This document shows, one piece after another, positions 2,487 through 27,591 of a DNA stretch of 40,999 nucleotides. A program made the translations under genes and the position numbers. The stretch lies in UHGV virus genome UHGV-1366019; one strand, given 5' to 3'. Each line of letters begins with the position of its first letter. The stretch's first letter is position 1. The notes under the pieces are model-generated. The model had not been told where the DNA came from and searched no databases. It worked only from the letters and a program-made list of their open reading frames with translations. Source of the stretch: a virus.

Positions 2487-2967
2487 AGAATGGAAAGATA
2501 TTAAAGGTTATGAGGGTTTATATCAGGTTAGTAATTTAGGTAATGTTTACTCAAATATAACTAAAAAGAAACTAAAAGCAAGAATTAAAAGATATTCATA
2601 CTTAGGTGTTGTACTATACAATAATGAAGTAGCAAAACACTACACAATACACCGCCTAGTAGCGGAAGCATTTATACCAAACCCAGAAAACAAACCACAG
2701 GTAAACCATATTGATGAAGATAAAACAAACAACATGGTTTCTAATCTTGAATGGTGTACAGCTAAAGAGAATGCAAATCATGGTACACGTAATAAAAGAA
2801 TGAGTCATAGAGTAAAAGCTATAGATATTGCAACAGGCGAATACAATATCTATAACTCAATACGAGAATGCGGGAGAAAATTAAACATAAGTAGCGGAAA
2901 TATCAGTAAGCAATTAAATAGAAAAATTAAACATGTTGGAGGTTATATATTTGAGTATTCCAAATAA
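2479..2967 (+). CDS. HNH homing endonuclease (NUMOD4-like N-terminus plus HNH_3)
   Basis: WKDIKGYEGLYQVSNLGNV is the N-terminal motif typical of phage HNH homing endonucleases. HIDEDKTNNMVSNLEWCTAKENANHG is an HNH motif. Start taken at ATG 2479, inside the track ORF 2458. Confidence 0.8.
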   Translation: MIEEWKDIKGYEGLYQVSNLGNVYSNITKKKLKARIKRYSYLGVVLYNNEVAKHYTIHRLVAEAFIPNPENKPQVNHIDEDKTNNMVSNLEWCTAKENANHGTRNKRMSHRVKAIDIATGEYNIYNSIRECGRKLNISSGNISKQLNRKIKHVGGYIFEYSK

Positions 2968-4255
2968 AATAGGTAAGATTACTTTATTACCAAATCAAAT
3001 TGAATCAATTGAGAACTGGAAAGAAAAACCTTTTGATTTATCAGATGCAGGTGTTGGTAAAACCTATAGCGCATTAGGTGCCTACCTGCAATCTGGGTGC
3101 AGTAAGTTATTAGTTATATGCTTAGCACCAAAAGTCAGTGACTTTGCAGAAGATGGAGCTTTGATGGATATTGATATTACTCCATTAAACAGAGGAACAA
3201 AGAAAAACAAAGAACTGTTAGCTGAATCAGATAAAGTTGCAATCAGTTTTGAAAGTGTTTGGCGTATCACTGAATTAATGAAGTGGGTTGACAAAGACAC
3301 CTTTATAATTATTGATGAAGGACACAAGGTAGGAGTAGTAAGCTCTAAGGTTACCAAGTTTGTAATGAAGTTGACAAATAAAACCATGTATGTTAGAATA
3401 CTAACAGCAACACCTGTTAGCAATGGAAAACTTGAAAATTATTATCCATTGTTATATATGCTCAATGTATTCCGCAAACCTAAAAAAGAATTTGAAGAAC
3501 TATTTGTTATTAAGCAAATGCGCCAAATGGGTTCGCTTAGGTTCATGCAAATTGTTGGGTATCAGAACGAGCATTTATTAAATGATATGATAAATAGCGT
3601 TGCGGTGCGTTTTACACGTGATAAAGACTATTTCCCAGCAGATTATGTGTATAAGACTAAAAAGCCAGCTATGTATGCTAAATTGAAAAAGAACCGCATG
3701 TACAAAGCAGATAACGGCGAAGTGATTGAATTAGATAATAGTAGTAAACTATTTAACGCAATGCGCTGTGTGTCACATGGTTTCTTATTAGGAATCAATA
3801 AACAGGTAAGTAAAGAACCATTTGAACGACTGAACCAGATTCTTGAAACACACAATGACGAACGAATAGTTATATTTTATAATTACAATGTAGAACTTGA
3901 AATGTTGAAACAAGTATTAGACAAGTTAAAACGTCCATATAGCCAATATAATGGCGCTAGCAAAGACTTAAAAGCGTTTAAAGGTAAAGACAACGGTGTT
4001 GTGTTAGCACACTACAAATCAGCTTCTACAGGTATTAATGACTTTGTTATTGCGAATGTGACAATTTACAATTCAATGCCTTTAGAATCAATTAACTATG
4101 AACAATCAAAAGCACGCACAGACCGCTATGGTCAAACGAAGAAACCACTTTATTATCACATTGTACCTGAAACACCAACGGAGAAAAAGATTTTTGAAAC
4201 AGTCACAAACGGAAAAGACTTTACTAATGAAGATATTGAAAACATTTTAAAATAA
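2951..4255 (+). CDS. SNF2/DEAD-like superfamily-2 helicase
   Basis: Motif I GVGKTYSALGAY, DEGH box (IIIDEGH), motif III LTATPVSNG, motif VI QSKARTDRYGQ. Probable TTG start at 2951 after GGAGG at 2938-2942; the track ATG at 2933 lacks an RBS. Confidence 0.75.
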   Translation: MSIPNKIGKITLLPNQIESIENWKEKPFDLSDAGVGKTYSALGAYLQSGCSKLLVICLAPKVSDFAEDGALMDIDITPLNRGTKKNKELLAESDKVAISFESVWRITELMKWVDKDTFIIIDEGHKVGVVSSKVTKFVMKLTNKTMYVRILTATPVSNGKLENYYPLLYMLNVFRKPKKEFEELFVIKQMRQMGSLRFMQIVGYQNEHLLNDMINSVAVRFTRDKDYFPADYVYKTKKPAMYAKLKKNRMYKADNGEVIELDNSSKLFNAMRCVSHGFLLGINKQVSKEPFERLNQILETHNDERIVIFYNYNVELEMLKQVLDKLKRPYSQYNGASKDLKAFKGKDNGVVLAHYKSASTGINDFVIANVTIYNSMPLESINYEQSKARTDRYGQTKKPLYYHIVPETPTEKKIFETVTNGKDFTNEDIENILK

Positions 4256-6191: not shown

Positions 6192-6667
6192 TTGAAAAAT
6201 TTGAACCATTGTTTGAACCGTATGACAGATACGCAGTTTCAAACATGGGATATGTAATAGACCGTGACACAGGTTTAACGGTCTGGAACTCATATGAGGA
6301 TAACGGCAAACCATACGTAGTCTTAGAAGGCTCACACAATAAGACACGTAAGTTTTTTATTGCTAACTTAGTAGCTGAATCATTTGTATTAAATAAAGAC
6401 AATCTAGGCTATCTGTATTACAAAGATGGTGATGTTAACAATACACATTGCAACAACCTTGGGTGGGCTATTAACCCACAAGAAGGCAAACAACGTGTTG
6501 CACGTCCACTGCGTAAAAAAGTAGAGGATAAACGTCATAAATTAATTATTGAAATTAATAAATGTATTGACAAAGATAAATGGGATACTGCTAAACGACT
6601 TGGCAAAGAGTTATGGGAATTAGAAGGCAACCCATGGTCTGAACGCAATACACCATCTCAATATTAG
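6188..6667 (+). CDS. HNH endonuclease (second homing-type copy)
   Basis: YAVSNMGYV is a NUMOD4-like motif. KDGDVNNTHCNNLGW is an HNH_3-like motif. Confidence 0.65.
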   Translation: MIEKFEPLFEPYDRYAVSNMGYVIDRDTGLTVWNSYEDNGKPYVVLEGSHNKTRKFFIANLVAESFVLNKDNLGYLYYKDGDVNNTHCNNLGWAINPQEGKQRVARPLRKKVEDKRHKLIIEINKCIDKDKWDTAKRLGKELWELEGNPWSERNTPSQY

Positions 6668-6677
6668 GAGGTAGCAA

Positions 6678-7454
6678 ATGTCATTCAAATGGAACGTACA
6701 TTACACAGGCAGTAAAGGAAATGCAGTATCAATTTTTAATAACAATTTAGGTATCTTAGTAGATTTTGGTAAACCATATAAATATATTGAGCCATTCTTA
6801 TATGATGTTCATTTCTTAATTGTAACTCATAGACATGGTGACCATTTTAAGCCAGCTGTTTATAAGAAGATTCGTGAAAACTTTCCAAACATTAAAATTT
6901 TAGCTAATGAAGAAGTAAGCAACTTAATGTTTGAAAAAGCAAAAATTCCAGCAGATGTTGTCTTTAGTGATAACTTTCAATTTCAAATTGGCACAATGAA
7001 ATTCACAACTATTCAGAACTATCATGGTGCTGGTGAAGAACTGGTTGACTGTCATGGCTTCATTATTGAAGATACAGAAACACAAGAGGTATTATTATAT
7101 GCAACTGATTTAAGCACTACAATAGACTATCAGGAATATTTAGATAAAAACGCTTTACAAGTAGACTACTTTTTGTTAGAATCTAACTATGACCCACAAG
7201 TAATTGAATTTTATGAATCAACGAAAGCACACACTGGTTTTGATATTTTTAGCAACGGTTCATATCGTCACTTAGCTTCAACTGAACATAAAGAATTTAC
7301 AGAAAAGTATTGCAAACCAAATTCAATTGTGGTACCATTGCACCAAAGCGAAACATATTCAACTTTTGAAGGACTAATAAAACGTACTAAAAAAGATGAA
7401 AATAAAATCACAATGGAGGACGTGGAAGCATGGAAAAAAAGCAAGAACAAATGA
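6678..7454 (+). CDS. metallo-beta-lactamase-fold hydrolase
   Basis: THRHGDHF is the HxHxDH zinc-binding motif. Further His/Asp residues lie downstream. Confidence 0.75.
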   Translation: MSFKWNVHYTGSKGNAVSIFNNNLGILVDFGKPYKYIEPFLYDVHFLIVTHRHGDHFKPAVYKKIRENFPNIKILANEEVSNLMFEKAKIPADVVFSDNFQFQIGTMKFTTIQNYHGAGEELVDCHGFIIEDTETQEVLLYATDLSTTIDYQEYLDKNALQVDYFLLESNYDPQVIEFYESTKAHTGFDIFSNGSYRHLASTEHKEFTEKYCKPNSIVVPLHQSETYSTFEGLIKRTKKDENKITMEDVEAWKKSKNK

Positions 7455-9787: not shown

Positions 9788-12079
9788 ATGAAGAACATTG
9801 CAGAATTTAAAAAGGCACCAGAACTAGCTGAAAAATTATTGGAGGTATTCAGCAATTTAAAAGGTAATTCACGAAGTCTTGACCCAATGAGAGCTGGTCA
9901 ACATGACGTGGTTGTTATTGAATCTACCAAAAAGTTATCAGCAAAAGGAAAAGAAATGAAAGTAGTTAAAATGCGTTCATTAGAAGATGGTAGGGACGTT
10001 ACAAGCTACATCATGAAGTTTCGCAAATATGACTGGGACAAATGGAAAAATGTTGAAGTTGGTGACCGTTTATTGATTGATTTGAAGTTTAGCAATGGTT
10101 TTGCTACAGTCAAACCTATTAGAAGTATATCAAAAGGTAATGAAACACCATTTAAACCAAGTGAAGCATTAACAAAACAAACCATTTTACTATTTGATAT
10201 TGAGATTTTTAAACATGATAGCTTATTTGTATTTCGTGATTACTTTACCAAAGAATGGTTTATCATCAATAATGACCTTGAAGAATTGCGCAAGTTTTAC
10301 CTTGAATACCGTGATAGTATGTTCATTGGGTATAATAATGCGTCATATGACAACAATGTAATGCGTGGCTATTTACAAGGCAAAAATGCTTATCAGATGT
10401 CTAAAACAATTATTGAATCAGATAATAGAGGTCTAGTTTACAAGATGTTTGATAGTCATAAAACACCATTATTTGGAATGGACCTATATCAAGATAACAA
10501 AGGTTTTAGCTTAAAAGAACATTCCGCATTTTTAGGTATCAACATTAAAGAAACAGAAGTAGATTTTGACATGGATAGACCATTGACAGATGAAGAAAAA
10601 GAGAAAAACATTGCATACTGTATGAATGATGTGTTAGCAACTGAAAAACGTTTTGAACAAAATATTGGTATGTTATTGGCTAAAGCAACCATTGCTTTAA
10701 TGTTTGATATGGATAAGACAGACCTATTACAAACCAATGCTAACTTAACAGCTAAGTTACTTGGTGCAACTAAACAAGAAGTTAGACCAGACTTGACAGA
10801 CCCATTAGAGTTAGACAAACGATTAAATATCAATACAAAAGAAATTGCAGAAGCATACCTGAACCATGAGTTTGAACTAAATGAAGATGGTAAATTGAAC
10901 GTGTCATTAGAGTACACGGACGAAGATGGATATACAATGATTTTTGGTAGTGGTGGTGTACATGGTGCTAAAGCTAGTTACATTCACATTGGAATGTTCC
11001 CAATGCGTGACTGGGGCTCGCTATATCCTAACACAATGGAACAATTTAACTTACTATCAAGAAATATTCCAAAGGATAAGATTCACCGCTACGGTGACTT
11101 ACTAAAGCAACGCATGGACGCTAAGTATTCAGGTGAAGAAGTGGCAAATATTAAAGGTGTAGAAGTACCAACATATGTAATGATTAACGGTATCAAGTTA
11201 CCATTGAACACTAAGTTTGGTGCCACTGGTGCGCAGTTTAATGGTTTGTATGACCCAAGAAACCAATTCTTAGTTTGTGCAACTGGTCAATTAATTATGA
11301 CAAACATGTATGAATTAATTAAAGGTAAAGCACAGTTTATTCAATCAAATACGGACGCACACGCATATATTCCAAACAGTGAAGCAGATGACAAAGCTAT
11401 TGATGAAGCATTAGATGAATTTGCTAACAAGATTGGACTTACACTAGATAAGGACATGTTTCGTGAAATTTGGCAAAAAGATGTAAACAACTACATTGCG
11501 GTACAACCAAATGGAAAAGTAAAAGTAAAAGGTGCTATTGGCTTAACTGGTGGTATGAAAGTGTCAAAAGCGATTGTATCAAATGCGTTCATTAATTATC
11601 TGGTAGCTGGTAAAGATTATAAAGAGTTTATCAATGAATGTAATGAACTAAGACAGTTTCAAATTATTACTAAAACAGGTTGGACATTTGATAGAACGGT
11701 TGCACGTGATAATGAAGGTAATGAGTTCAACGCACAAAAGGTTAACCGTGTATTCGCAGTAAAAGACAAAACTAATGCAGTAGAATTGTTTAAGGTCAAA
11801 GAAGGTCAATTATTAGATATTGAAGCTGATGAATTTAAAGATAACATTTCATATACAAAAGGATTGGCAAACGCACCAGAGTACTACACAATCAGTAATG
11901 AAGCGATTGGCGAAGGTATTACAATTGATGAAGTTGACAAACAATACTATATTGACCAAGTAGAAGATACGCTAGAGTTATGGTTTGGTGAGAACTGGAA
12001 AGAACGTATTGAACAAGCACATCATGAACGAGAATTACAAGGATTCAAACCAGTGGAAGTTAAAAATTATATTGACTAA
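9788..12079 (+). CDS. DNA polymerase, family-B type, with N-terminal DnaQ-like 3'-5' exonuclease
   Basis: Exonuclease motifs FDIE, YNNASYD and YCMNDV. Polymerase motif A D..SLYPN and a TDS-like motif C (QSNTDAHAY). 763 aa. Confidence 0.7.
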   Translation: MKNIAEFKKAPELAEKLLEVFSNLKGNSRSLDPMRAGQHDVVVIESTKKLSAKGKEMKVVKMRSLEDGRDVTSYIMKFRKYDWDKWKNVEVGDRLLIDLKFSNGFATVKPIRSISKGNETPFKPSEALTKQTILLFDIEIFKHDSLFVFRDYFTKEWFIINNDLEELRKFYLEYRDSMFIGYNNASYDNNVMRGYLQGKNAYQMSKTIIESDNRGLVYKMFDSHKTPLFGMDLYQDNKGFSLKEHSAFLGINIKETEVDFDMDRPLTDEEKEKNIAYCMNDVLATEKRFEQNIGMLLAKATIALMFDMDKTDLLQTNANLTAKLLGATKQEVRPDLTDPLELDKRLNINTKEIAEAYLNHEFELNEDGKLNVSLEYTDEDGYTMIFGSGGVHGAKASYIHIGMFPMRDWGSLYPNTMEQFNLLSRNIPKDKIHRYGDLLKQRMDAKYSGEEVANIKGVEVPTYVMINGIKLPLNTKFGATGAQFNGLYDPRNQFLVCATGQLIMTNMYELIKGKAQFIQSNTDAHAYIPNSEADDKAIDEALDEFANKIGLTLDKDMFREIWQKDVNNYIAVQPNGKVKVKGAIGLTGGMKVSKAIVSNAFINYLVAGKDYKEFINECNELRQFQIITKTGWTFDRTVARDNEGNEFNAQKVNRVFAVKDKTNAVELFKVKEGQLLDIEADEFKDNISYTKGLANAPEYYTISNEAIGEGITIDEVDKQYYIDQVEDTLELWFGENWKERIEQAHHERELQGFKPVEVKNYID

Positions 12080-12141: not shown

Positions 12142-12738
12142 ATGAACCCACTTGAAGTTAAAAGTGTAAAGGAATATAATGTTTTACCAGTACCACGAAA
12201 TGTAATTAGAAATTTTATTGAAGAATGGCATTACACACACTCTATAAATGGTCTACAATCATCATACTGTTTTGGGTTGTATTGTGGTGATGAATTAATT
12301 GGTGCTATGATTTATGGTGGCTTAGGTATGGCAAATGTTTGGAAGAAATACGGTGAAACCAAGGAGGAAGTTTTGGAACTTCGTAGACTATGTTTGATTG
12401 ATGATACCAAGCGTAACGCGGAATCATATTTCATTGGTAAGACGCTAAAATGGTTACGTAAGAATACAAACGTTAAAACTATTGTAAGCTATGCAGACCC
12501 TAACCATGGTCATGAGGGTATTATTTACAAAGCAACGAACTTCACGTTAGTAGGAAAGACAACTAAAACTAAAGTTATAAAATATGGTGATAAAATCTAT
12601 CATGATAAAGCAATAAGAACGAAATACAAAGGTGAATTGAAACCATTTGCGCAACGATTAGTTAATGCTTTAAACAGTGGTGAAGCTTATTATATTGAAC
12701 AAGAACCTAAAAATATTTATGTAAAGGAATTGATTTAA
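12142..12738 (+). CDS. conserved hypothetical protein (possible GNAT/Mom-like fold, uncertain)
   Basis: 198 aa. Motifs EWHYTHS...LIGAMIYGG and VSYADPNHGHEGIIYKATNF. Confidence 0.6.
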   Translation: MNPLEVKSVKEYNVLPVPRNVIRNFIEEWHYTHSINGLQSSYCFGLYCGDELIGAMIYGGLGMANVWKKYGETKEEVLELRRLCLIDDTKRNAESYFIGKTLKWLRKNTNVKTIVSYADPNHGHEGIIYKATNFTLVGKTTKTKVIKYGDKIYHDKAIRTKYKGELKPFAQRLVNALNSGEAYYIEQEPKNIYVKELI

Positions 12739-12969
12739 ATGATTACAGTATATACTAAAAACAATTGCATGCCTTGCAAAATGACAAAACGCAAACTACA
12801 AGAATTAGGTGTTAACTATAAAGAAATTAATGTAGATGAAAATTTGGAAGCATTAGAATTTTTAATGGAATACGGGTTTCGTTCTTTACCAGTTGTGTTC
12901 AATGAAAATGGCGCACCTATGGTAACAGGTGGATATGCACCAAATATCTTAGAAACCATTGTTTCATAG
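12739..12969 (+). CDS. nrdH: NrdH-like glutaredoxin
   Basis: 76 aa. The CMPC active site sits at the N-terminus of a thioredoxin-fold-sized protein with a GG motif near the C-terminus. Confidence 0.8.
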   Translation: MITVYTKNNCMPCKMTKRKLQELGVNYKEINVDENLEALEFLMEYGFRSLPVVFNENGAPMVTGGYAPNILETIVS

Positions 12970-13060
12970 GACGATTCTAAGCACGTTTCAGATTCAAAGT
13001 AAGGTGATTATACATTAAAACGCAAATAAAGACACCCTATATTGGGTGTCTTTTTGTTTT
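12965..13060. repeat. direct repeat copy 1 (~96 bp) flanking the lysis cassette
   Basis: ~95% identical to 14735..14830. Includes the last 2 codons plus stop of nrdH and the terminator hairpin. Confidence 0.85.
13030..13060 (+). terminator. rho-independent terminator (shared by convergent nrdH and endolysin transcripts)
   Basis: agacaccc-tatatt-gggtgtct followed by ttttgtttt. Confidence 0.7.
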
Positions 13061-14156
13061 ATACTAATGTACCCCACGTGTTGTTAGGGTCTCCGTCATT
13101 TGGTCCAATTGGTAAGTAGATACGTGTGCCATTAGTGTCTGTTCCACCAATCCATACATAACCGTCACCAACTGTGATTTCATCATACTTGAATACTGCA
13201 CCTTGTTTCCATGTTCCGTATACTGGGGCATATACGCTTGGTCGTCCACTACGTAAAACAATAGCGTCAACACCAATTGTAAACTGATTAACTGGTTTAC
13301 TTGGTTTTGGTGGGAACTTAGTGTTAAGGTCCTCTAAGTCGCCAGCGTTAGCATATGTTACAAATTTACCACTGTTTTCAATCTTGTAAGGATTGACTGC
13401 ACCTTGTTTCACTTCTGTAATTGTACCAACTTGTGTCCAAAGACTTGCACCAGCTACGAATGGTACCACTGGTCCATTGTGTGACTTGTGACCATTATAA
13501 ATGTAAACATTTTGTCCTTTTTTGAATGTCTTTGGTTTGCTTGGTGTTGGTTTTACTGATTCACCAGATACCCCATTGGCTAAGTCTTTAGCAAGTTGCG
13601 CTTTACTGATTCCCATTTCTGCTAAGTAACCATATGGGTCTGTGTGGTCACCCCATACATAATCTGATACCCATTTATGAGAGATAACACCTTTTTCCCA
13701 AACAGAAGAACCTTGGTCAAGTGTCATAGGAATTCCAAACTTTTTGCCCATGTCTCTTGTATAATCAATGTATGCCTTATAGTTCTTTTTGAACAATTCC
13801 TTATCATGTGTATGTTGCAACTCAATTTGAATAGGTGCGTAGGGGTTTGCGTTACCAGCACCCCATGAAATGTTACCTTCTGGTGCAATCTTATAAACAA
13901 TTCCGCCATCGCCAATGATAGCTGTTGTATGTGCATTAAACCAGTTGTTTTTCATGTACGTTGCTTCATTTCGTCCTGTGGCACGTTCATTAGCAGTTTC
14001 ATGTAAGATAATCTTATTAGGTAGTGCAACCTGTCCTGAACCTTCCCAATGGCTTAAATTGAACTCGTTATTAACTTCATATGCGTTAGCTGTTTGCATT
14101 CCAGCAAACAAACCAATGGTTGCTAATGCACCAAATAAAATACCTTTTAATTTCAT
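13059..14156 (-). CDS. endolysin: N-acetylmuramoyl-L-alanine amidase (Amidase_2/PGRP) with signal peptide and C-terminal SH3b-type repeats
   Basis: MKLKGILFGALATIGLFAGMQTANA is a signal peptide. The amidase_2 core follows. Two repeats with W/Y/G pattern sit after the PSKPK linkers. Confidence 0.8.
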   Translation of the reverse strand: MKLKGILFGALATIGLFAGMQTANAYEVNNEFNLSHWEGSGQVALPNKIILHETANERATGRNEATYMKNNWFNAHTTAIIGDGGIVYKIAPEGNISWGAGNANPYAPIQIELQHTHDKELFKKNYKAYIDYTRDMGKKFGIPMTLDQGSSVWEKGVISHKWVSDYVWGDHTDPYGYLAEMGISKAQLAKDLANGVSGESVKPTPSKPKTFKKGQNVYIYNGHKSHNGPVVPFVAGASLWTQVGTITEVKQGAVNPYKIENSGKFVTYANAGDLEDLNTKFPPKPSKPVNQFTIGVDAIVLRSGRPSVYAPVYGTWKQGAVFKYDEITVGDGYVWIGGTDTNGTRIYLPIGPNDGDPNNTWGTLV

Positions 14157-14158
14157 AC

Positions 14159-14394
14159 TTATTTATCCTCCTTATTGTCTTTAATACCTTTTGTGGTTGG
14201 GTCTATAACTACCCCTAAAATACTTAACACAACGAATACCGCATTAACCACGTCAATTAGTTGTTGGCTCAAACCAGTTAGGTTTGATAAGTCTAATCCA
14301 AAAATGTTTCCCACAACTTGAATCAGAACAATTACTGCTGGAATTAAAGCAATCCAGAACGCTTTGTTTTTAATACGTGTTTTCCAATCCATTT
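14159..14394 (-). CDS. holin (phi-LC3/LL-H-like family)
   Basis: MDWKTRIKNKAFWIALIPAVIVLIQ...VVLSILGVVIDPTTKG. ATG 14392 follows the RBS aaggagag; the longer track ORF (14476) has no RBS. Confidence 0.7.
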
Positions 14395-14406
14395 TTAACA
14401 CTCTCC

Positions 14407-14652
14407 TTATAATATAGTTATAATAGCACCAATAACAGCAACAATAATTGCTCCTGATACTGTGCGTGTTAGCCAAGTTAAACGGTCATTTATACTAGCA
14501 ATGTCTTTCTCATTTTGAATTGAACGATGATGGGTTTCACTCAATAAATTATTGTTTGCCTTTAATTCATTTTTCAAATCTGGAATACCTTCCAAGTTTG
14601 ATTCAATTCTAGCTAGTTGCACTTTTATTTCCATAAAGTCCTTATCTTCCAT
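14407..14652 (-). CDS. xhlA: XhlA-like lysis-associated membrane protein
   Basis: N-terminal coiled coil (RIESNLEG...RLTWL) plus a C-terminal TM segment (GAIIVAVIGAIITIL), as in PBSX XhlA. Lies upstream of the holin. Confidence 0.55.
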   Translation of the reverse strand: MEDKDFMEIKVQLARIESNLEGIPDLKNELKANNNLLSETHHRSIQNEKDIASINDRLTWLTRTVSGAIIVAVIGAIITIL

Positions 14653-14734
14653 GCCTACATCTCCCTATCTTATTATAATCACCGCCTTTCAGCTACTATT
14701 ATAGTATAGCATTTAAATAAGGGAAATAGTGTGC

Positions 14735-14830
14735 TTCATAGGACGATTCTAAGCGTTTTTCATATTCAAAGTAAGGTGATTATACATTAAAACGCAAATA
14801 AAGACACCCTATATTGGGTGCCTTTTTGTT
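14735..14830. repeat. direct repeat copy 2 (~96 bp), includes a terminator hairpin after the Tal gene
   Basis: Starts with the relic ttcatag and ends in the hairpin agacaccc/gggtgcct plus T-run, overlapping the Tal stop. Confidence 0.85.
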
Positions 14831-17198
14831 ATCCAATTGGGAATAGCTCTTCTAACTGCACGTTTACTAAACGCATTGCCATCAGATTATTTCTATTTGC
14901 TCGTAGTTCTAAAACAAGACCAAACCATTGTCCAGCTTTTACATCAATTACAACGGTAGCTGTACCAATCCATTGTAATAACACTGCACGACTGTCTCCA
15001 GTACCAAGTGCCGAAGCAACTAATACACCCCCACTTGTTGTTTTTAATTCATTATAACTGTTTCTTACTTGCATTTTTGCATAAGCGTAGTCTGTATCAC
15101 TAGCTGAACCACTACCCTGCATAAGTACGGTTCCTTGAAATTTAATTTTTGCGTCCCGTTGTGCTTGGAATGCATCTCTTGCTGTATTGGCTTGGACTAA
15201 GCCATTTAATGCACTAACAGTTGTATTGAACCCAAGAGCCTGTAAACTTCCAAATTTAAATAGGTCTGTACTCTTTGCATTAGTAACGTTTGTCCCTTCC
15301 CCCCATGCTGAAATGTTTGGACTGTGACCATTAACTTTTATTAGACCACCTGAAAGCTCTGTGGTACCTGTCAATGTGGCTGGGTTGCTACCTTCTTTAG
15401 TTGTTGTTACAAAGCTAAGTCCTCTAGGTTCTAATGTTGCCTGTTGGTTTATTTCAGTATTCGCAGTTGTATAGTCAAGTTCATTTAGGTAAACTCTGTT
15501 TGCTGATAATAAACCATTTGACTTGCGTTCTATTTTAGTACCTGTTGCAATATCATAGTTATTTATGGTGTTTAGTACTTGACCATATTGTATTTTTGTT
15601 GTTTCCTCTGTTCTAAGTTTTTCTAGTGTTGAACCTGTAGTGATAATAAATGTATCGTTATCCTGTATAATAGCCCCATTTTCAATCACTGTTGTTCCTT
15701 GCCTACGTGCTTGACCACCGTTGATAGGTTCTGTTATATTCCATGTGTTGATAAATTCAGAACCATTGATTGTTGAACCATTGATGTTTACTGCGTTAAG
15801 TGTTTCAATGTTCAGCACAGATTGGTCAATTGTTTGTTCTTGCCACGCACCATCTTTATACACCTTGTATGCTGTTACCATAACATCGCCTGTTGTTGGT
15901 GTATCAGCTACTGCATTTAAACGTAATAAACGAGTTTCAGGTACTGCTGGTGCAACTGGTTCTTGTACCCACCAAATATCATTTTCTTTTGGTGTTGCTG
16001 GCTCTTCCTGTTGAACAAACACTTGCGGTACACTATTGAACATTTGTTCTGTTTTATTGTTTATGTTTATTTGAATTTCTCGCAGTTGTTCAGCAATTCC
16101 AGATTCTAAACGTACAAAATCAGATAAGACTGCTTCACACGTATTTGATTCATAACGAAATGTCAATTGTTGAACACGTGAACTAAGATATAGTTTTTCG
16201 TTTTCGTCAACTAATTCAACGGTATCGCCTACCTGTAAAATATCAGGAATGTTTGCAATATCAACAATGTAATTCGTTATTGGTTGGCTGTATTTTTTAA
16301 GATGTGAAACCACGTTATTTACTAGTGTTGTTTTGTTTGTTGTTTCCCACTGTTTGTGTTGTAAGAAGTAATGTGAGTTAGTATTATCTCTTGACCATTG
16401 CTTAATGTTCTGCGTATCACGTATAACACCATCGCTTTTATTTAATACAAACCGCCCTTCTGGGTCCGTCCATGTGAACCCTTTTAAGTTAATAGGTTGG
16501 TCCTTACCTTCCTCTGTACCGCCTGTAGCATAGATAGCATTCACAAGTTGGTATATATCTTCTTCAACTACAATTGAATGAATGTCTTTATTTACATACA
16601 TTCTGTGAAAATCAGTTGTACCACGTTTTTTCTTAATATCAATATAACGTTGACTTAGTTGGTTTCCAATAAATTCAAATCTAAACTCTATTTCTGCATT
16701 GTCAAATTGGGTTGCAACTGATTGGATACGCTCTAATGCTGTTGCTTCACCTTCCCATTCAAGTTTACGTGTTAGTTTTGAAATTTCATTAAGACCAATC
16801 TTGAAACCACTGTCATACGTAAAGCGTTCAATGTAATGCGCAACATTATATGCTTTGTCTGCTTTGTAGTCACTTACTGTTTCATTTAATAAGTCCAGTC
16901 CAGCGTCCTCACATTCTAATGTTCTAACCTGTGTCAGTGGATTGTGTGTTGATTTTAAAATAGTCATCCACTCATGTTTACCATTTAGGTCAATGTATAA
17001 AACGTAGTTACCTACCTTGAAAAACTCTTTAGCTTTATCTGTTGTTTCAGGTGTGAAGCTTATTTCCATTGTCATTCTACGTGAAGATGTTTCAAGAGTA
17101 GAAACATCTTCCGCAGAAATTACCTTAAAAATTGTATTACCTGTTGTGCTTACAACCGTTTCTAGTTTAAAATTGCGGTCTGTGATATAAAAGTCCAT
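14829..17198 (-). CDS. tail-associated protein Tal / tail fibre (Prophage_tail-like N-terminus, C-terminal receptor-binding region)
   Basis: 789 aa, immediately downstream of Dit. N-terminus is similar to Tal (gp27-like). Confidence 0.6.
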   Translation of the reverse strand: MDFYITDRNFKLETVVSTTGNTIFKVISAEDVSTLETSSRRMTMEISFTPETTDKAKEFFKVGNYVLYIDLNGKHEWMTILKSTHNPLTQVRTLECEDAGLDLLNETVSDYKADKAYNVAHYIERFTYDSGFKIGLNEISKLTRKLEWEGEATALERIQSVATQFDNAEIEFRFEFIGNQLSQRYIDIKKKRGTTDFHRMYVNKDIHSIVVEEDIYQLVNAIYATGGTEEGKDQPINLKGFTWTDPEGRFVLNKSDGVIRDTQNIKQWSRDNTNSHYFLQHKQWETTNKTTLVNNVVSHLKKYSQPITNYIVDIANIPDILQVGDTVELVDENEKLYLSSRVQQLTFRYESNTCEAVLSDFVRLESGIAEQLREIQININNKTEQMFNSVPQVFVQQEEPATPKENDIWWVQEPVAPAVPETRLLRLNAVADTPTTGDVMVTAYKVYKDGAWQEQTIDQSVLNIETLNAVNINGSTINGSEFINTWNITEPINGGQARRQGTTVIENGAIIQDNDTFIITTGSTLEKLRTEETTKIQYGQVLNTINNYDIATGTKIERKSNGLLSANRVYLNELDYTTANTEINQQATLEPRGLSFVTTTKEGSNPATLTGTTELSGGLIKVNGHSPNISAWGEGTNVTNAKSTDLFKFGSLQALGFNTTVSALNGLVQANTARDAFQAQRDAKIKFQGTVLMQGSGSASDTDYAYAKMQVRNSYNELKTTSGGVLVASALGTGDSRAVLLQWIGTATVVIDVKAGQWFGLVLELRANRNNLMAMRLVNVQLEELFPIG

Positions 17199-23904: not shown

Positions 23905-23932
23905 AATAAAAAAGAGAGCCGTTAAGCTCTCT
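23905..23932 (-). terminator. rho-independent terminator after the major tail protein gene
   Basis: - strand agagagc-ttaacg-gctctct followed by tttttatt. Confidence 0.6.
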
Positions 23933-23934
23933 TA

Positions 23935-24003
23935 GGTTAATTCAATTGATACACTTGTGTCAGCTGGCGTCACCTGTCCTACCACAGGTGGCGTGCTAGG
24001 GTG
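23935..24003 (-). other. conserved ~70-nt block after the major tail protein stop (CCC-UAG context), paralogous to 26313..26382
   Basis: See the findings. The +1 frame is open for 21 codons and ends in TAA at 23932-23934. Confidence 0.5.
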
Positions 24004-24559
24004 TAATAATGTTGTTTACTTTGTCAACAAACTTGTCAAGTGTTAATGTTTCACTTGAAACAGCACTCATGTATGCGAACCCGCGTGAATCTGTTACAAA
24101 TGAACCTTCAATTGTTTCTGTGTTTGGTTCTGTACCACCAGATTCAGTTGTATTCAATGCGATTTCTGGGTGGCTGAAACGTCCTTTAACTAAACCAAAG
24201 TACATTTCTTTACCGTCTGCACCGTCTGCAACAAATACCGCTGAAACGTAAGGTGCTTCTGTGTTTTCGCCAACAATTGCAATACCATCTTCACCGCGTT
24301 CAATGCCTAAAATTTTCTCATAAACGTTGTCTTTATACAAGTCAAATACGTTTAATGAAGCTGTTAACTCTCCAACCCCTTTTGCTGATACCCAAATTGG
24401 AACGTTTGACGCATAAACGGTTGTTTGTTCTGCTGAAATTCCTTGAATTGACGCTTCAATAGTACCGCCACCGCTTTTATCAATTGTGTATTTATCAACG
24501 CCAGCACCTTCTGCTTTAGGTACGCTGATAATAGCTTTTTTAAAACCTACTACTGCCAT
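23996..24559 (-). CDS. major tail protein
   Basis: 187 aa, phi13/TP901-like MTP family. Its position is canonical. Confidence 0.8.
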   Translation of the reverse strand: MAVVGFKKAIISVPKAEGAGVDKYTIDKSGGGTIEASIQGISAEQTTVYASNVPIWVSAKGVGELTASLNVFDLYKDNVYEKILGIERGEDGIAIVGENTEAPYVSAVFVADGADGKEMYFGLVKGRFSHPEIALNTTESGGTEPNTETIEGSFVTDSRGFAYMSAVSSETLTLDKFVDKVNNIITP

Positions 24560-26304: not shown

Positions 26305-26312
26305 AGTATTTA

Positions 26313-26382
26313 CGATAATTCAATTGATACACTTGTGTCAGCTGGTGTCACCTGCCCTACCACAGGTGGCGCACTAGGGTGC
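26313..26382 (-). other. conserved ~70-nt block after the major capsid protein stop (CCC-UAG context)
   Basis: About 90% identical to 23935..24003. The +1 frame is open for 21 codons and ends in TAA at 26310-26312. Confidence 0.5.
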
Positions 26383-27591
26383 TGGTGTTAATGTAATGAA
26401 TTTTCCAGCCGCTGGGTCTACTACTTTAGCGTCAAAACGCATGAAGATTGCTAAGTATTGACCGTAAATTTCATGGTCAATCCAACGAGCAGTAGTTTCA
26501 GCACGATTGAAGAATGTTGCAAATGCTACTGGGTCGCCTAAGAATGCCACTTTAGCACCTTTATCACCTAACATTTCATCTTTTAACACTGTTACTGGAA
26601 CACCAAACAATGATTTACCAGACTGTGCTGTAATGTCAGTTTGTAATAAGTAACGTCCTTCACCGTCTTTCATGATGTCAACTGCGTTGTAGAATGATTG
26701 AGTAACAATTAATTCCAATCCATAAGCTGGGTCGAAACCAGTGTTAATCTGTGTTTTGATGTCATCTAATGAAGTTGCTGGTACTGCTGTAGCTGTTTTT
26801 AACAAGTTAGCTAAAACAAAGTTAGTTGTGTTTAAGCCTTGACGTTGTACTGAATCAGCAATAATTCCAGCTAAGTCGTCCGCTGAATCATCTAATGATT
26901 CTTGTGATACAACAATTTGACCACGGTAAGTTGATACGTTGTAAGGAACTTCTTCAAATTCAGGTTTTGCCAATGCTGGGTTTTTTGCCAACTCTTCAAC
27001 TGTTACCATTTTTGCAGTAGTTGATTTCAAGATTGGGTATTTACCGCCAGATGTTTTAACTTTGATACTGTTCACTTTATTACGTAAGTCAACAACTGTG
27101 TCTGGTAATTTACGTGCTTTTGTGATAATATCTTCTGGGATAATTGCTTCTGCGTCTGTTGATTTAACTTGTCCGTCATCAACCGCACGTGTTTCGTTAA
27201 ATGATTTTACGCTAGTTGATTTTGAAGTCACGTAGTCTAAAAACGCACGCTGTTCTGTTACTGGCTCTGCTAACTCTTTACCATTGATTTTTACTTTCTC
27301 CATGTCAATATCTTCTCCTTTTGCGTTCTCAATTGAACGTTCTTCTTTTTTTGGTTCTTCCTTTGGTTCGTCTTTGACTTCGTCTTTTGGTTGGTCCTTT
27401 GGTTCTTCTTTAGGCTCTTCCTTTTTGACTTCGTCTTTAGGTGCTTCTGCTTTATCTTCTGCACGTTCTTCGTTTTCAGCTGGTGTTTCATCTTTCAAAG
27501 CTTCTAACTGTTCAATAACTTTTTTAGCTTCGTCAAGTTTACCTTCTGCCAACAAAGATTTTGCTTGCGCTTCTAACTCTGCCTTGTTCAT
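26374..27591 (-). CDS. major capsid protein (HK97 fold) with N-terminal charged delta/scaffold domain
   Basis: 405 aa. HK97-family MCP C-terminal region. N-terminal ~110 aa is coiled-coil and PEEPK-repeat rich. The preceding gene is the prohead protease. Confidence 0.85.
   Translation of the reverse strand: MNKAELEAQAKSLLAEGKLDEAKKVIEQLEALKDETPAENEERAEDKAEAPKDEVKKEEPKEEPKDQPKDEVKDEPKEEPKKEERSIENAKGEDIDMEKVKINGKELAEPVTEQRAFLDYVTSKSTSVKSFNETRAVDDGQVKSTDAEAIIPEDIITKARKLPDTVVDLRNKVNSIKVKTSGGKYPILKSTTAKMVTVEELAKNPALAKPEFEEVPYNVSTYRGQIVVSQESLDDSADDLAGIIADSVQRQGLNTTNFVLANLLKTATAVPATSLDDIKTQINTGFDPAYGLELIVTQSFYNAVDIMKDGEGRYLLQTDITAQSGKSLFGVPVTVLKDEMLGDKGAKVAFLGDPVAFATFFNRAETTARWIDHEIYGQYLAIFMRFDAKVVDPAAGKFITLTPAP

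Follow-up and report, generated by a model that had tools for sequence, protein, structure and literature searches.

Morons, reportedly described by Juhala et al. in 2000 and by Hendrix et al., are said to be autonomous transcription units residing in the late operons of lambdoid phages. The modular theory of Susskind and Botstein reportedly includes conserved boundary or linker sequences at the junctions of modules, which are said to have been treated for lambdoid phages by Clark et al. in 2001. The gene order tail, XhlA, holin, lysin is standard in siphophages of Firmicutes. The locus presented here, judged by its sequence, appears to belong with the intrinsic terminators found at operon ends and with the boundary sequences of mosaic phages, and is somewhat moron-like. 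It is the lysis cassette of the virus genome UHGV-1366019, a stretch of 40,999 nucleotides (nt) that is called the window below and represents an Enterococcus siphophage of the genus Efquatrovirus. Two direct repeats of 99 nt, each including a predicted terminator, border its genes for an XhlA-like protein, a holin and an endolysin. The repeats are probably paralogous terminator units that insulate the lysis operon, were duplicated once and undergo occasional gene conversion; the feature is real but ordinary, and most likely not the built-in device for cassette exchange that the original prediction, made from the same DNA, saw in it.

Terminators of a related kind have been recorded in other phages. 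Four bidirectional terminators were reported in vB_EfaS-271 (PMC7503890), and in the record of phage LM99 a bidirectional terminator is annotated between nrdH and the endolysin gene, referred to here as site 1, and another terminator behind the tail gene, at site 2, which lies between xhlA and the tail gene. The bidirectional terminators of LM99 and vB_EfaS-271 resemble that of the window in their G+C-rich, perfectly palindromic stem, in their A-run and T-run, in their location between the convergent nrdH and endolysin genes, and in the prediction that transcripts arriving from either side are stopped. They differ in that in the window the terminator lies within a 99-nt unit present twice, the second copy of which appears to have drifted to one-directional function on the minus strand. 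The literature searched, which covers the predicted terminators and the mosaicism of the genus, does not describe the two sites as paralogous. The likeness to morons consists in a gene set with its own (here putative) promoter and terminator at the end of a long late operon; morons, however, are accessory and show presence/absence polymorphism, whereas the cassette of the window comprises needed lysis genes and is found in every relative.

A repeat finder placed the two copies at 12960-13058 (copy 1) and 14732-14830 (copy 2), 1772 nt apart from start to start, with 93 of the 99 positions identical (94%); self-BLAST of the window returned the pair with an E value of 1.7e-37 and found no third copy. 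Both methods agree with the near-identity originally reported for 12965-13060 and 14735-14830 (five mismatches in 96 nt), the homology being 99 nt long with its left edge 5 nt beyond the start given then. The end of nrdH is indeed part of copy 1, which contains the last three codons of the gene and its TAG stop, and the relic of this stop is present in copy 2 as TTCATAG with no open reading frame (ORF) in front of it. Following the nrdH end, copy 1 consists of a 5' box (TCAyAGGAnnATTCTAAGC, 12963-12982), a middle segment, a 3' box (GGTGATTATnCATT...GCAAATAAA, 13003-13030), a hairpin belonging to one of three sequence families, and a T-run; the A-run of the 3' box is at the same time the U-tract of the minus-strand terminator. 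The middle segment exists in two forms, A at copy 1 and in approximately half of the copy-2 alleles, and B at copy 2 only. Each copy abuts the TAA of a minus-strand gene, that of the endolysin (13059-13061) or that of the tail protein (14829-14831), and read on the minus strand the unit thus has the order stop codon, terminator, about 70 nt.

Chance similarity or an assembly artefact, i.e., a collapsed or duplicated terminator, is a practically negligible explanation of this arrangement, given the E value within the window and the occurrence of the two-copy architecture in dozens of independently sequenced phages from several continents. What speaks for it is a single short metagenome contig, L101 (Ga0172378_10141524, 1953 nt), in which an extra inverted unit at positions 3-192 abuts copy 2 at the contig end. 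This inverted copy most likely arose itself during assembly, by a fold-back at the palindromic terminator.

As originally described, both copies end in a hairpin followed by a T-run, with the stem AAAGACACCC-6-GGGTG(T/C)CTTT and the loop TATATT in each. The 10-bp stems have folding energies of -16.1 kcal/mol in copy 1 (z -5.1 relative to shuffled sequences) and -15.5 kcal/mol in copy 2 (z -4.95). The stem-loop of copy 1 occupies 13028-13053 (AAAGACACCC tatatt GGGTGTCTTT) and is followed on the plus strand by a T-run at 13054-13063, while on the minus strand the complement of 13018-13027 forms its T-rich tail; the consensus scan and the fold predict a bidirectional intrinsic terminator at 13018-13063, acting on both strands. 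That of copy 2 runs from 14825 to 14800 and then into ATTTGCGTTT, beginning 3 nt past the tail-gene TAA (14831-14829), and the same two methods predict here (14790-14831, minus strand) a terminator of the tail-gene, i.e., late structural, transcript. U-rich tracts follow the stems as CTTTTTGTTTT on the plus strand of copy 1 and as CTTTATTTGCGTTTT on the minus strand of both copies. The minus-strand stems begin 3-5 nt past the TAA of the tail and endolysin genes, and on the plus strand the copy-1 stem lies 58 nt past the TAG of nrdH. In copy 2 the stem has ten pairs, one of them G.U, on the minus strand and five contiguous pairs on the plus strand, its single mismatch being A.C on the plus strand and G.U on the minus strand.

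The hairpin alleles of the relatives were folded one by one, as their differing stem and loop lengths prevent alignment in a single register and hence the counting of pairs per column. More than 30 alleles keep a stable stem, of -9 to -24 kcal/mol, through coordinated, compensatory changes in both arms, and they fall into the stem families GACACCC/GGGTGTC, AACACCyCT/AGrGGTGTT, and GACCyCC/GGrGGTC. Stems of the copy-1 type are perfect palindromes of about equal stability on either strand, which fits a bidirectional terminator at a point of convergence. Among the copy-2 alleles, 11 of 17 gain 1 kcal/mol or more in stability when folded as minus-strand RNA, where G.U takes the place of A.C; the window's own copy 2 folds at -15.4 kcal/mol on the minus strand versus -12.8 on the plus strand in this per-allele folding. 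Selection for terminating the tail-gene transcript would give such a bias. The hairpins can thus be regarded as predicted intrinsic terminators. Copy 1 would serve both nrdH and the endolysin gene, at the place where the rightward replication genes meet the leftward late genes, and copy 2 would end the structural late transcript on the minus strand immediately behind the stop codon of the last tail gene.

A role for copy 2 on the plus strand, such as ending an antisense RNA started at 14395-14424, was considered and rejected, most copy-2 hairpins being weaker on that strand. The site in question, at the holin/xhlA junction on the plus strand, has the form TTAACA-18-TATAAT, matches the sigma-70 consensus at 11 of 12 positions (the second-best plus-strand match in a 10-kb scan) and is directed antisense over xhlA toward copy 2. 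The match probably reflects the AT-rich ribosome-binding region, and a dedicated antisense RNA is disfavoured by the weak plus-strand pairing of the copy-2 hairpins.

The distribution of the unit was followed in 45 loci, namely 18 GenBank records, 26 IMG/VR contigs and the window, of which 41 are distinct over the region, and in an additional 13 metagenome contigs. Wherever the sequence reaches, the unit is present at both sites in all 45 + 13 loci, the same three lysis genes always lie between the copies, and no form with a single unit, with a deletion, without the cassette or with other cargo occurs among them. In approximately 100 GenBank records with the unit the lysin gene adjoins copy 1 in all, and none is without the cassette. 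IME-EF4 and others, which appeared to be single-copy in the first BLAST search, do have copy 2 in a diverged form (77%). The search among relatives for a single repeat or a different cargo, proposed together with the original prediction, accordingly found both units and the same content throughout, which is essentially the outcome named there as speaking for a simple duplicated terminator. Since both units are present in every locus, the duplication seems to be as old as the genus and not peculiar to the window. Outside this group the unit is hardly found: the 5' box was detected in the IMG/VR scan only in these Efquatrovirus contigs, and a scan of a genome collection gave 24 matches versus about 17 expected by chance, with only two of them, both from Enterococcus, extending beyond the search pattern. 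Third copies indicated by BLAST in some records are mostly the palindromic hairpin matching itself, a true tandem duplication being present in Vaquero only.

The near-identity of the two copies in the window is not typical. Over the first 80 nt of the unit in 41 genomes, the mean identity is 0.877 among copy-1 alleles, 0.841 among copy-2 alleles and 0.775 between copy 1 and copy 2, and the two copies within a genome (0.774) are no more alike than those from different genomes (0.775; permutation p 0.47), which indicates that there is no general concerted evolution. The outliers within a genome are the window, with 0.938 at the top of the 41, and Ef6.4 and VP15 with 0.90 each. Diagnostic sites and a nearest-neighbour comparison show that copy 2 of the window is a chimera. 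Its unit positions 5-32 are of the copy-2 type, their identity being 0.90 with copy-2 alleles as against 0.80 with those of copy 1, while positions 33-99, including the hairpin, are of the copy-1 type, with a mean of 0.91 to copy-1 alleles, 0.77 to copy-2 alleles and 0.99 to the window's own copy 1. The repeat is striking in the window because the right two-thirds of copy 2 have been overwritten by copy-1 sequence; the 94% identity is a secondary, lineage-specific homogenisation and not the trace of a recent insertion.

Exchange between the sites has left marks elsewhere as well. Copy 1 of the window has CG at positions 13-14, and C at position 13 occurs in 3 of the 41 copy-1 alleles and in 23 of the 41 copy-2 alleles. 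A copy-1-type hairpin at site 2 is confined to the window, Ef6.4 and the metagenome contig L097, the only three to share the chimera, all of which have one and the same tail-gene allele; the two copies of Ef6.4 share private variants seen in no, or almost no, other genome; and LY0322 has a site-2-type hairpin at site 1. These patterns point to occasional exchange of sequence between the two sites, apparently by ectopic gene conversion. The patchwork copy 2 of the window, with 67 nt nearly identical to its own copy 1, and the private variants of Ef6.4 are what is seen in ectopic conversion between dispersed short repeats. Unlike in rRNA operons and other homogenised families, conversion would here be sporadic, the paralogues evolving independently across the genus: the copies would diverge separately and, in the lineage of the window, the right two-thirds of copy 2 would have been replaced in this way. 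In Vaquero site 2 carries a 77-nt tandem duplication of the unit (6630-6690 and 6707-6767 of locus L036). Both of these repeats are of the copy-1 type, their hairpin family otherwise adjoins the second type of lysin, and the junction of the duplication lies inside the 3' arm of the hairpin; the xhlA and holin alleles of this phage differ as well.

The origin of the unit can be traced to nrdH. In LY0322 and a few other phages nrdH continues through the unit and encodes a protein of 89 amino acids (aa) ending in CVSEEHSKHFSDEKVGN before the stop codon, and copy 1 of the window corresponds in frame to this tail, with TAG in place of GAG. A degenerate fragment from Enterococcus dongliensis (L066, 830-889) translates to CVSQEHSKHVLD, a stop and KVGN (tblastn E 3e-5). 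On account of these two matches the first 57 nt or so of the unit are taken to be former nrdH coding sequence, and the direction from copy 1 to copy 2, which had been proposed before, is likely; homology reaching further left into nrdH did not exceed shuffled controls. Site 1 is likely the native context and copy 2 a derived duplicate, and the duplication appears to have had a single origin. The unit would thus comprise the 3' end of nrdH, a former nrdH tail of about 60 nt and an intrinsic terminator, duplicated once at or before the origin of Efquatrovirus.

Several observations concern the same sequences in other contexts. In LY0322 (L037/L026, 2502-3346) a gene for a homing endonuclease of the HNH/NUMOD type (2774-3304) interrupts copy 1, separating the 3' box from the hairpin, and the hairpin behind it is of the family usual at copy 2. 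Unit-like sequences are also present outside phages. The E. dongliensis sequence, a relic of the extended NrdH tail with 54 nt at 80% identity (L066, 830-900), adjoins genes of the host, and a degraded mobile element may end there. In Enterococcus sp. LJL51 (L072, 958-984) a 27-nt 5' box (93%) directly follows the stop codon of a resolvase gene.

The original prediction held that the duplication took place when the 1.67-kb module was inserted or exchanged, and that the repeats are kept as a device for excising or swapping the whole cassette. The first part does not agree with the presence of the unit pair in every Efquatrovirus locus and with copies that are typically about 77% alike. The whole is quite improbable, although the relic of the nrdH end in copy 2 is in keeping with it, as is the exchange of sequence between the sites, with copy-1-type sequence at site 2 in the window, Ef6.4, L097 and Vaquero and a site-2-type hairpin at site 1 of LY0322. 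In a descriptive comparison, 820 genome pairs were classed by the segments in which they are at least 95% identical. The whole cassette is common to 86 pairs, and in 66 of these both flanks are divergent, which again accords with the proposed device; only a part of the cassette, however, is common to 439 pairs, five times as many. Discordance between adjacent segments was counted in 263 pairs for nrdH/lysin, 300 for the two lysin halves, 155 for lysin/holin, 161 for holin/xhlA and 299 for xhlA/tail, the junction within the lysin gene thus being as discordant as those at the repeats. A crude breakpoint profile over all pairs has peaks at both units, as the proposed device would have it, and equally at the linker of the lysin (at about 13560), in the holin gene and at the 5' end of xhlA, so that among the 820 pairs the breakpoints are not confined to the repeats.

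Further observations do not favour a dedicated exchange device. None of the 45 + 13 loci shows polymorphism in the presence or content of the cassette; neither they nor the approximately 100 GenBank records with the unit include a genome without the cassette, with one unit or with other genes between the units. The ORF list and Pfam show no recombinase gene in or beside the cassette, and the HNH genes that some relatives have are placed either within copy 1 or beyond the cassette. The copies being usually about 77% alike, with no genus-wide concerted evolution, nothing maintains their likeness. A swap of cassettes between genomes would use the orthologous flanks, copy 1 with copy 1 and copy 2 with copy 2, and therefore does not need the two copies to be alike. 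Recombination between the direct repeats, said to excise or swap the module cleanly, would instead delete xhlA, the holin gene and the endolysin gene, i.e., all the lysis genes of a strictly lytic phage; a genome so altered could not release its progeny unaided, and no deleted form was found among the relatives. With no content polymorphism, breakpoints equally common inside the cassette and no recombinase, the notion of a built-in mechanism is not upheld, and the units appear to be ordinary module boundaries in a thoroughly mosaic region. They are similar to the boundary sequences of mosaic phage genomes as short conserved non-coding stretches that flank variable modules and coincide with breakpoints, but differ from them in that breakpoints are as frequent inside the cassette and that the likeness of the two boundaries plays no role.

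The interdomain linker of the endolysin, at about 13540-13620, is the strongest single breakpoint peak of the region. The relatives have two unrelated N-terminal catalytic domains, in lysins of 365 aa and of 327-331 aa, on a common SH3 C-terminus. Domain shuffling in the lysis and receptor-binding proteins has been reported for the genus (PMC13517437), with which the mosaicism of the window's region agrees.

The position of copy 2 suits the insulation of the cassette against the tail operon, as had been suggested, and the claim that the cassette has a promoter-like element of its own is supported. Between copy 2 and xhlA lies a strongly conserved 79-nt spacer (14653-14731, minus strand), a putative lysis promoter and leader. 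It contains an extended -10 element, TGCTATACT, at 14711-14703, and a Shine-Dalgarno sequence, GGGAGA, at 14665-14660, which as a ribosome-binding site stands 7 nt ahead of the xhlA ATG at 14652. The mean pairwise identity of the spacer is 0.91, exceeding the conservation of the flanking genes, and of nine metagenome loci covering the spacer seven are 100% identical to the window in it, one of these seven having an xhlA only 86.6% identical. The promoter-like motif TGnTATACT (14711-14703, minus strand) is invariant in 45 of 45 loci, while the overlapping TATAAT varies; the original prediction had placed promoter-like TATAAT elements at about 14690. TGnTATACT may therefore be an extended -10 promoter, from which transcription would start anew towards the lysis genes. 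The extended -10 and the ribosome-binding site of the spacer would together restart expression of xhlA, the holin gene and the endolysin gene, and the lysis cassette would be a self-contained, insulated unit of a promoter, three genes and a terminator. In one distant relative, L030, xhlA lies 8 nt behind the preceding late gene with no spacer, which weakly suggests that the insulated arrangement is specific to Efquatrovirus.

Several points weigh against the explanation by old, insulating terminator units. Termination and promoter activity are predictions, and the sigma-70 scan gave no recognisable -35 element for the putative lysis promoter. With a single, poor outgroup for comparison, the duplication may or may not have accompanied an ancient acquisition of the lysis module. 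The 41 genomes are related and mosaic, which makes the pair counts descriptive and not independent tests. Moreover, the 5' and 3' boxes of both copies have a pairwise identity of 0.86-0.91, with 65-70% invariant columns in the 5' box and 39% in the 3' box, versus 0.76-0.80 identity and 18-37% invariant columns for the third codon positions of nrdH, holin and xhlA. A passive relic of nrdH does not account for conservation well above third-position levels in copy 2, which is never coding, and the unit may do more than terminate.

This conservation speaks for a different reading, in which the non-hairpin part of about 60 nt, with its 5' box and its 3' box GGTGATTATnCATT, is a functional cis element maintained for that reason at both borders of the cassette, either as a site for a late regulator upstream of the lysis promoter or as an RNA element that modulates read-through or stability. 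We consider it unlikely. The 5' box of copy 2 does lie at about -39 to -58 relative to the point where the lysis transcript is predicted to begin, a usual place for an activator or an UP element, and a 27-mer like the 5' box stands behind a resolvase gene in another Enterococcus genome. The motif GGTGATTAT occurs three times in the window versus 0.49 expected, the third time inverted and just upstream of the ribosome-binding site of xhlA. On the other hand, Rfam has no match to the unit (the best score is 23 bits versus thresholds of 50-55), no consensus structure or compensatory pairs exist outside the hairpin on either strand, the fold of the leader does not exceed shuffled sequences (z -0.45), and the unit contains neither a sigma-70 match nor a conserved ORF. 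In addition, two allelic forms of the middle segment replace each other freely at copy 2, copy 1 has no equivalent downstream promoter, and the boxes could owe their conservation to recombination combined with a coding role in those genomes whose nrdH continues through the unit. That the boxes are an undescribed cis-regulatory element at both borders, and the duplication functional and not a relic, is a little less likely still. If true, a late regulator could set the timing of lysis through restart or read-through at the copy-2 terminator and through antisense or convergent transcription at copy 1.

The inverted GGTGATTAT lies at 14675-14683 on the minus strand, about 10 nt upstream of the ribosome-binding site of xhlA, compared with 14775-14783 on the plus strand, and together with the 3' box of copy 2 it makes up a 10-nt inverted repeat across 92 nt. 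A number of other roles for the unit were tried and rejected. A structured or small RNA finds neither an Rfam match nor a conserved fold outside the hairpin; a long-range leader fold between the TCATAG relic and the start of xhlA has z -0.45 and shows one-sided changes only; and a sigma-70 promoter within the unit has no match of at least 9 of 12 on either strand, hand inspection revealing -10-like hexamers with no usable -35. A 12-codon minus-strand ORF is present in both copies of the window, but lacks a ribosome-binding site and is interrupted in IME-EF4. Read-through that would lengthen the lysin or the tail protein at its C-terminus is contradicted by the different frames of the copies relative to the stop codons, and a mobile element by the presence of only two copies, at fixed sites and with no terminal inverted repeats.

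The unit pair is thus best regarded, as stated at the outset, as a pair of duplicated terminators. A 3.8-kb query around the repeats matched 108 GenBank phage records, all with Enterococcus as the host; every matched record inspected, including the closest local relatives, is classified as Efquatrovirus. The nearest relatives of the repeat region are MSF2, Vaquero, and RioGrande (95-96%), while the structural half of the window is pieced together from segments like those of MSF2, G01, Q69, and Ef6.4, and none of the matches is near 100% identical over that half. Gene names were assigned from the ORF list and Pfam. On the plus strand, the DNA polymerase gene (9788-12079) and a Mom-like gene (12142-12738) precede the nrdH-like glutaredoxin gene (12739-12969; Pfam Glutaredoxin, E 2.5e-16), which ends the rightward, replication or early, block and whose counterparts in relatives are annotated as glutaredoxin or thioredoxin-domain proteins. 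In AL2 and VP14 an HNH gene lies between the DNA polymerase gene and nrdH, in the place of the Mom-like gene of the window.

The genes on the minus strand include that of the tail protein (14829-17198; Pfam Prophage_tail), a Tal-like protein of 789 aa and the last of the structural genes. Its 3' end is hypervariable and matches only some of the relatives, at 65-92%. It is followed by xhlA (14407-14652; Pfam XhlA, E 1.3e-10), the first gene of the lysis cassette, which encodes an XhlA-like membrane protein listed as a second 'holin' in annotations, and then by the holin gene (14159-14395; Pfam Phage_holin_1, E 2.4e-23) and the endolysin gene (13059-14156), the ORF of which has Amidase_2 and SH3_5 cell-wall-binding domains in Pfam. 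The N-terminus of the endolysin, MKLKGILFGALATIGLFAGMQTANA, resembles a signal peptide as judged by eye only. The genes for XhlA, holin and peptidoglycan hydrolase are thus adjacent, co-oriented and close the late region, as befits a lysis cassette. In the relative Abitsa two holins homologous to 24.1 and 26 of SPP1 and a signal-peptide lysin have been described (PMC13517437).

A second direct repeat in the window, 72 nt long and 92% identical, is located at 23932-24003 and 26310-26381 on the minus strand. Its copies start exactly at the CCC-TAG with which the major capsid gene (26374..27591) and the major tail gene (23996..24559) close. Read on from CCC in the +1 frame, the two copies encode nearly identical 21-aa extensions, SAPPVVGQVTPADTSVSIELS and STPPVVGQVTPADTSVSIELT, each ended by a stop codon, and two of the positions at which they differ are synonymous in this reading. 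Behind the extensions stands a hairpin, CACCUG-6-CAGGUG. This arrangement looks like a programmed +1 frameshift that would yield long forms of the capsid and tail proteins. A comparable +1 frameshift was reportedly described by Zimmer et al. in 2003 for the Listeria phage PSA.

The analysis is of corrective value, in that a 94% repeat around a lysis cassette invites the story of a swappable cassette, while the relatives point to an old duplicated terminator that was locally homogenised. It also offers a small, clean example of what appears to be sporadic ectopic conversion between repeats of 100 nt in a lytic phage, and of strand-biased maintenance of terminator pairing. For Efquatrovirus, phages widely proposed for the therapy of Enterococcus faecalis infections, it provides a testable transcription map, in which the structural late transcript would end behind the tail gene and the lysis genes would be separately promoted and insulated. 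Such a map would be relevant to engineering, both of host range, where swaps of the tail gene would end at the copy-2 terminator, and of the timing of lysis.

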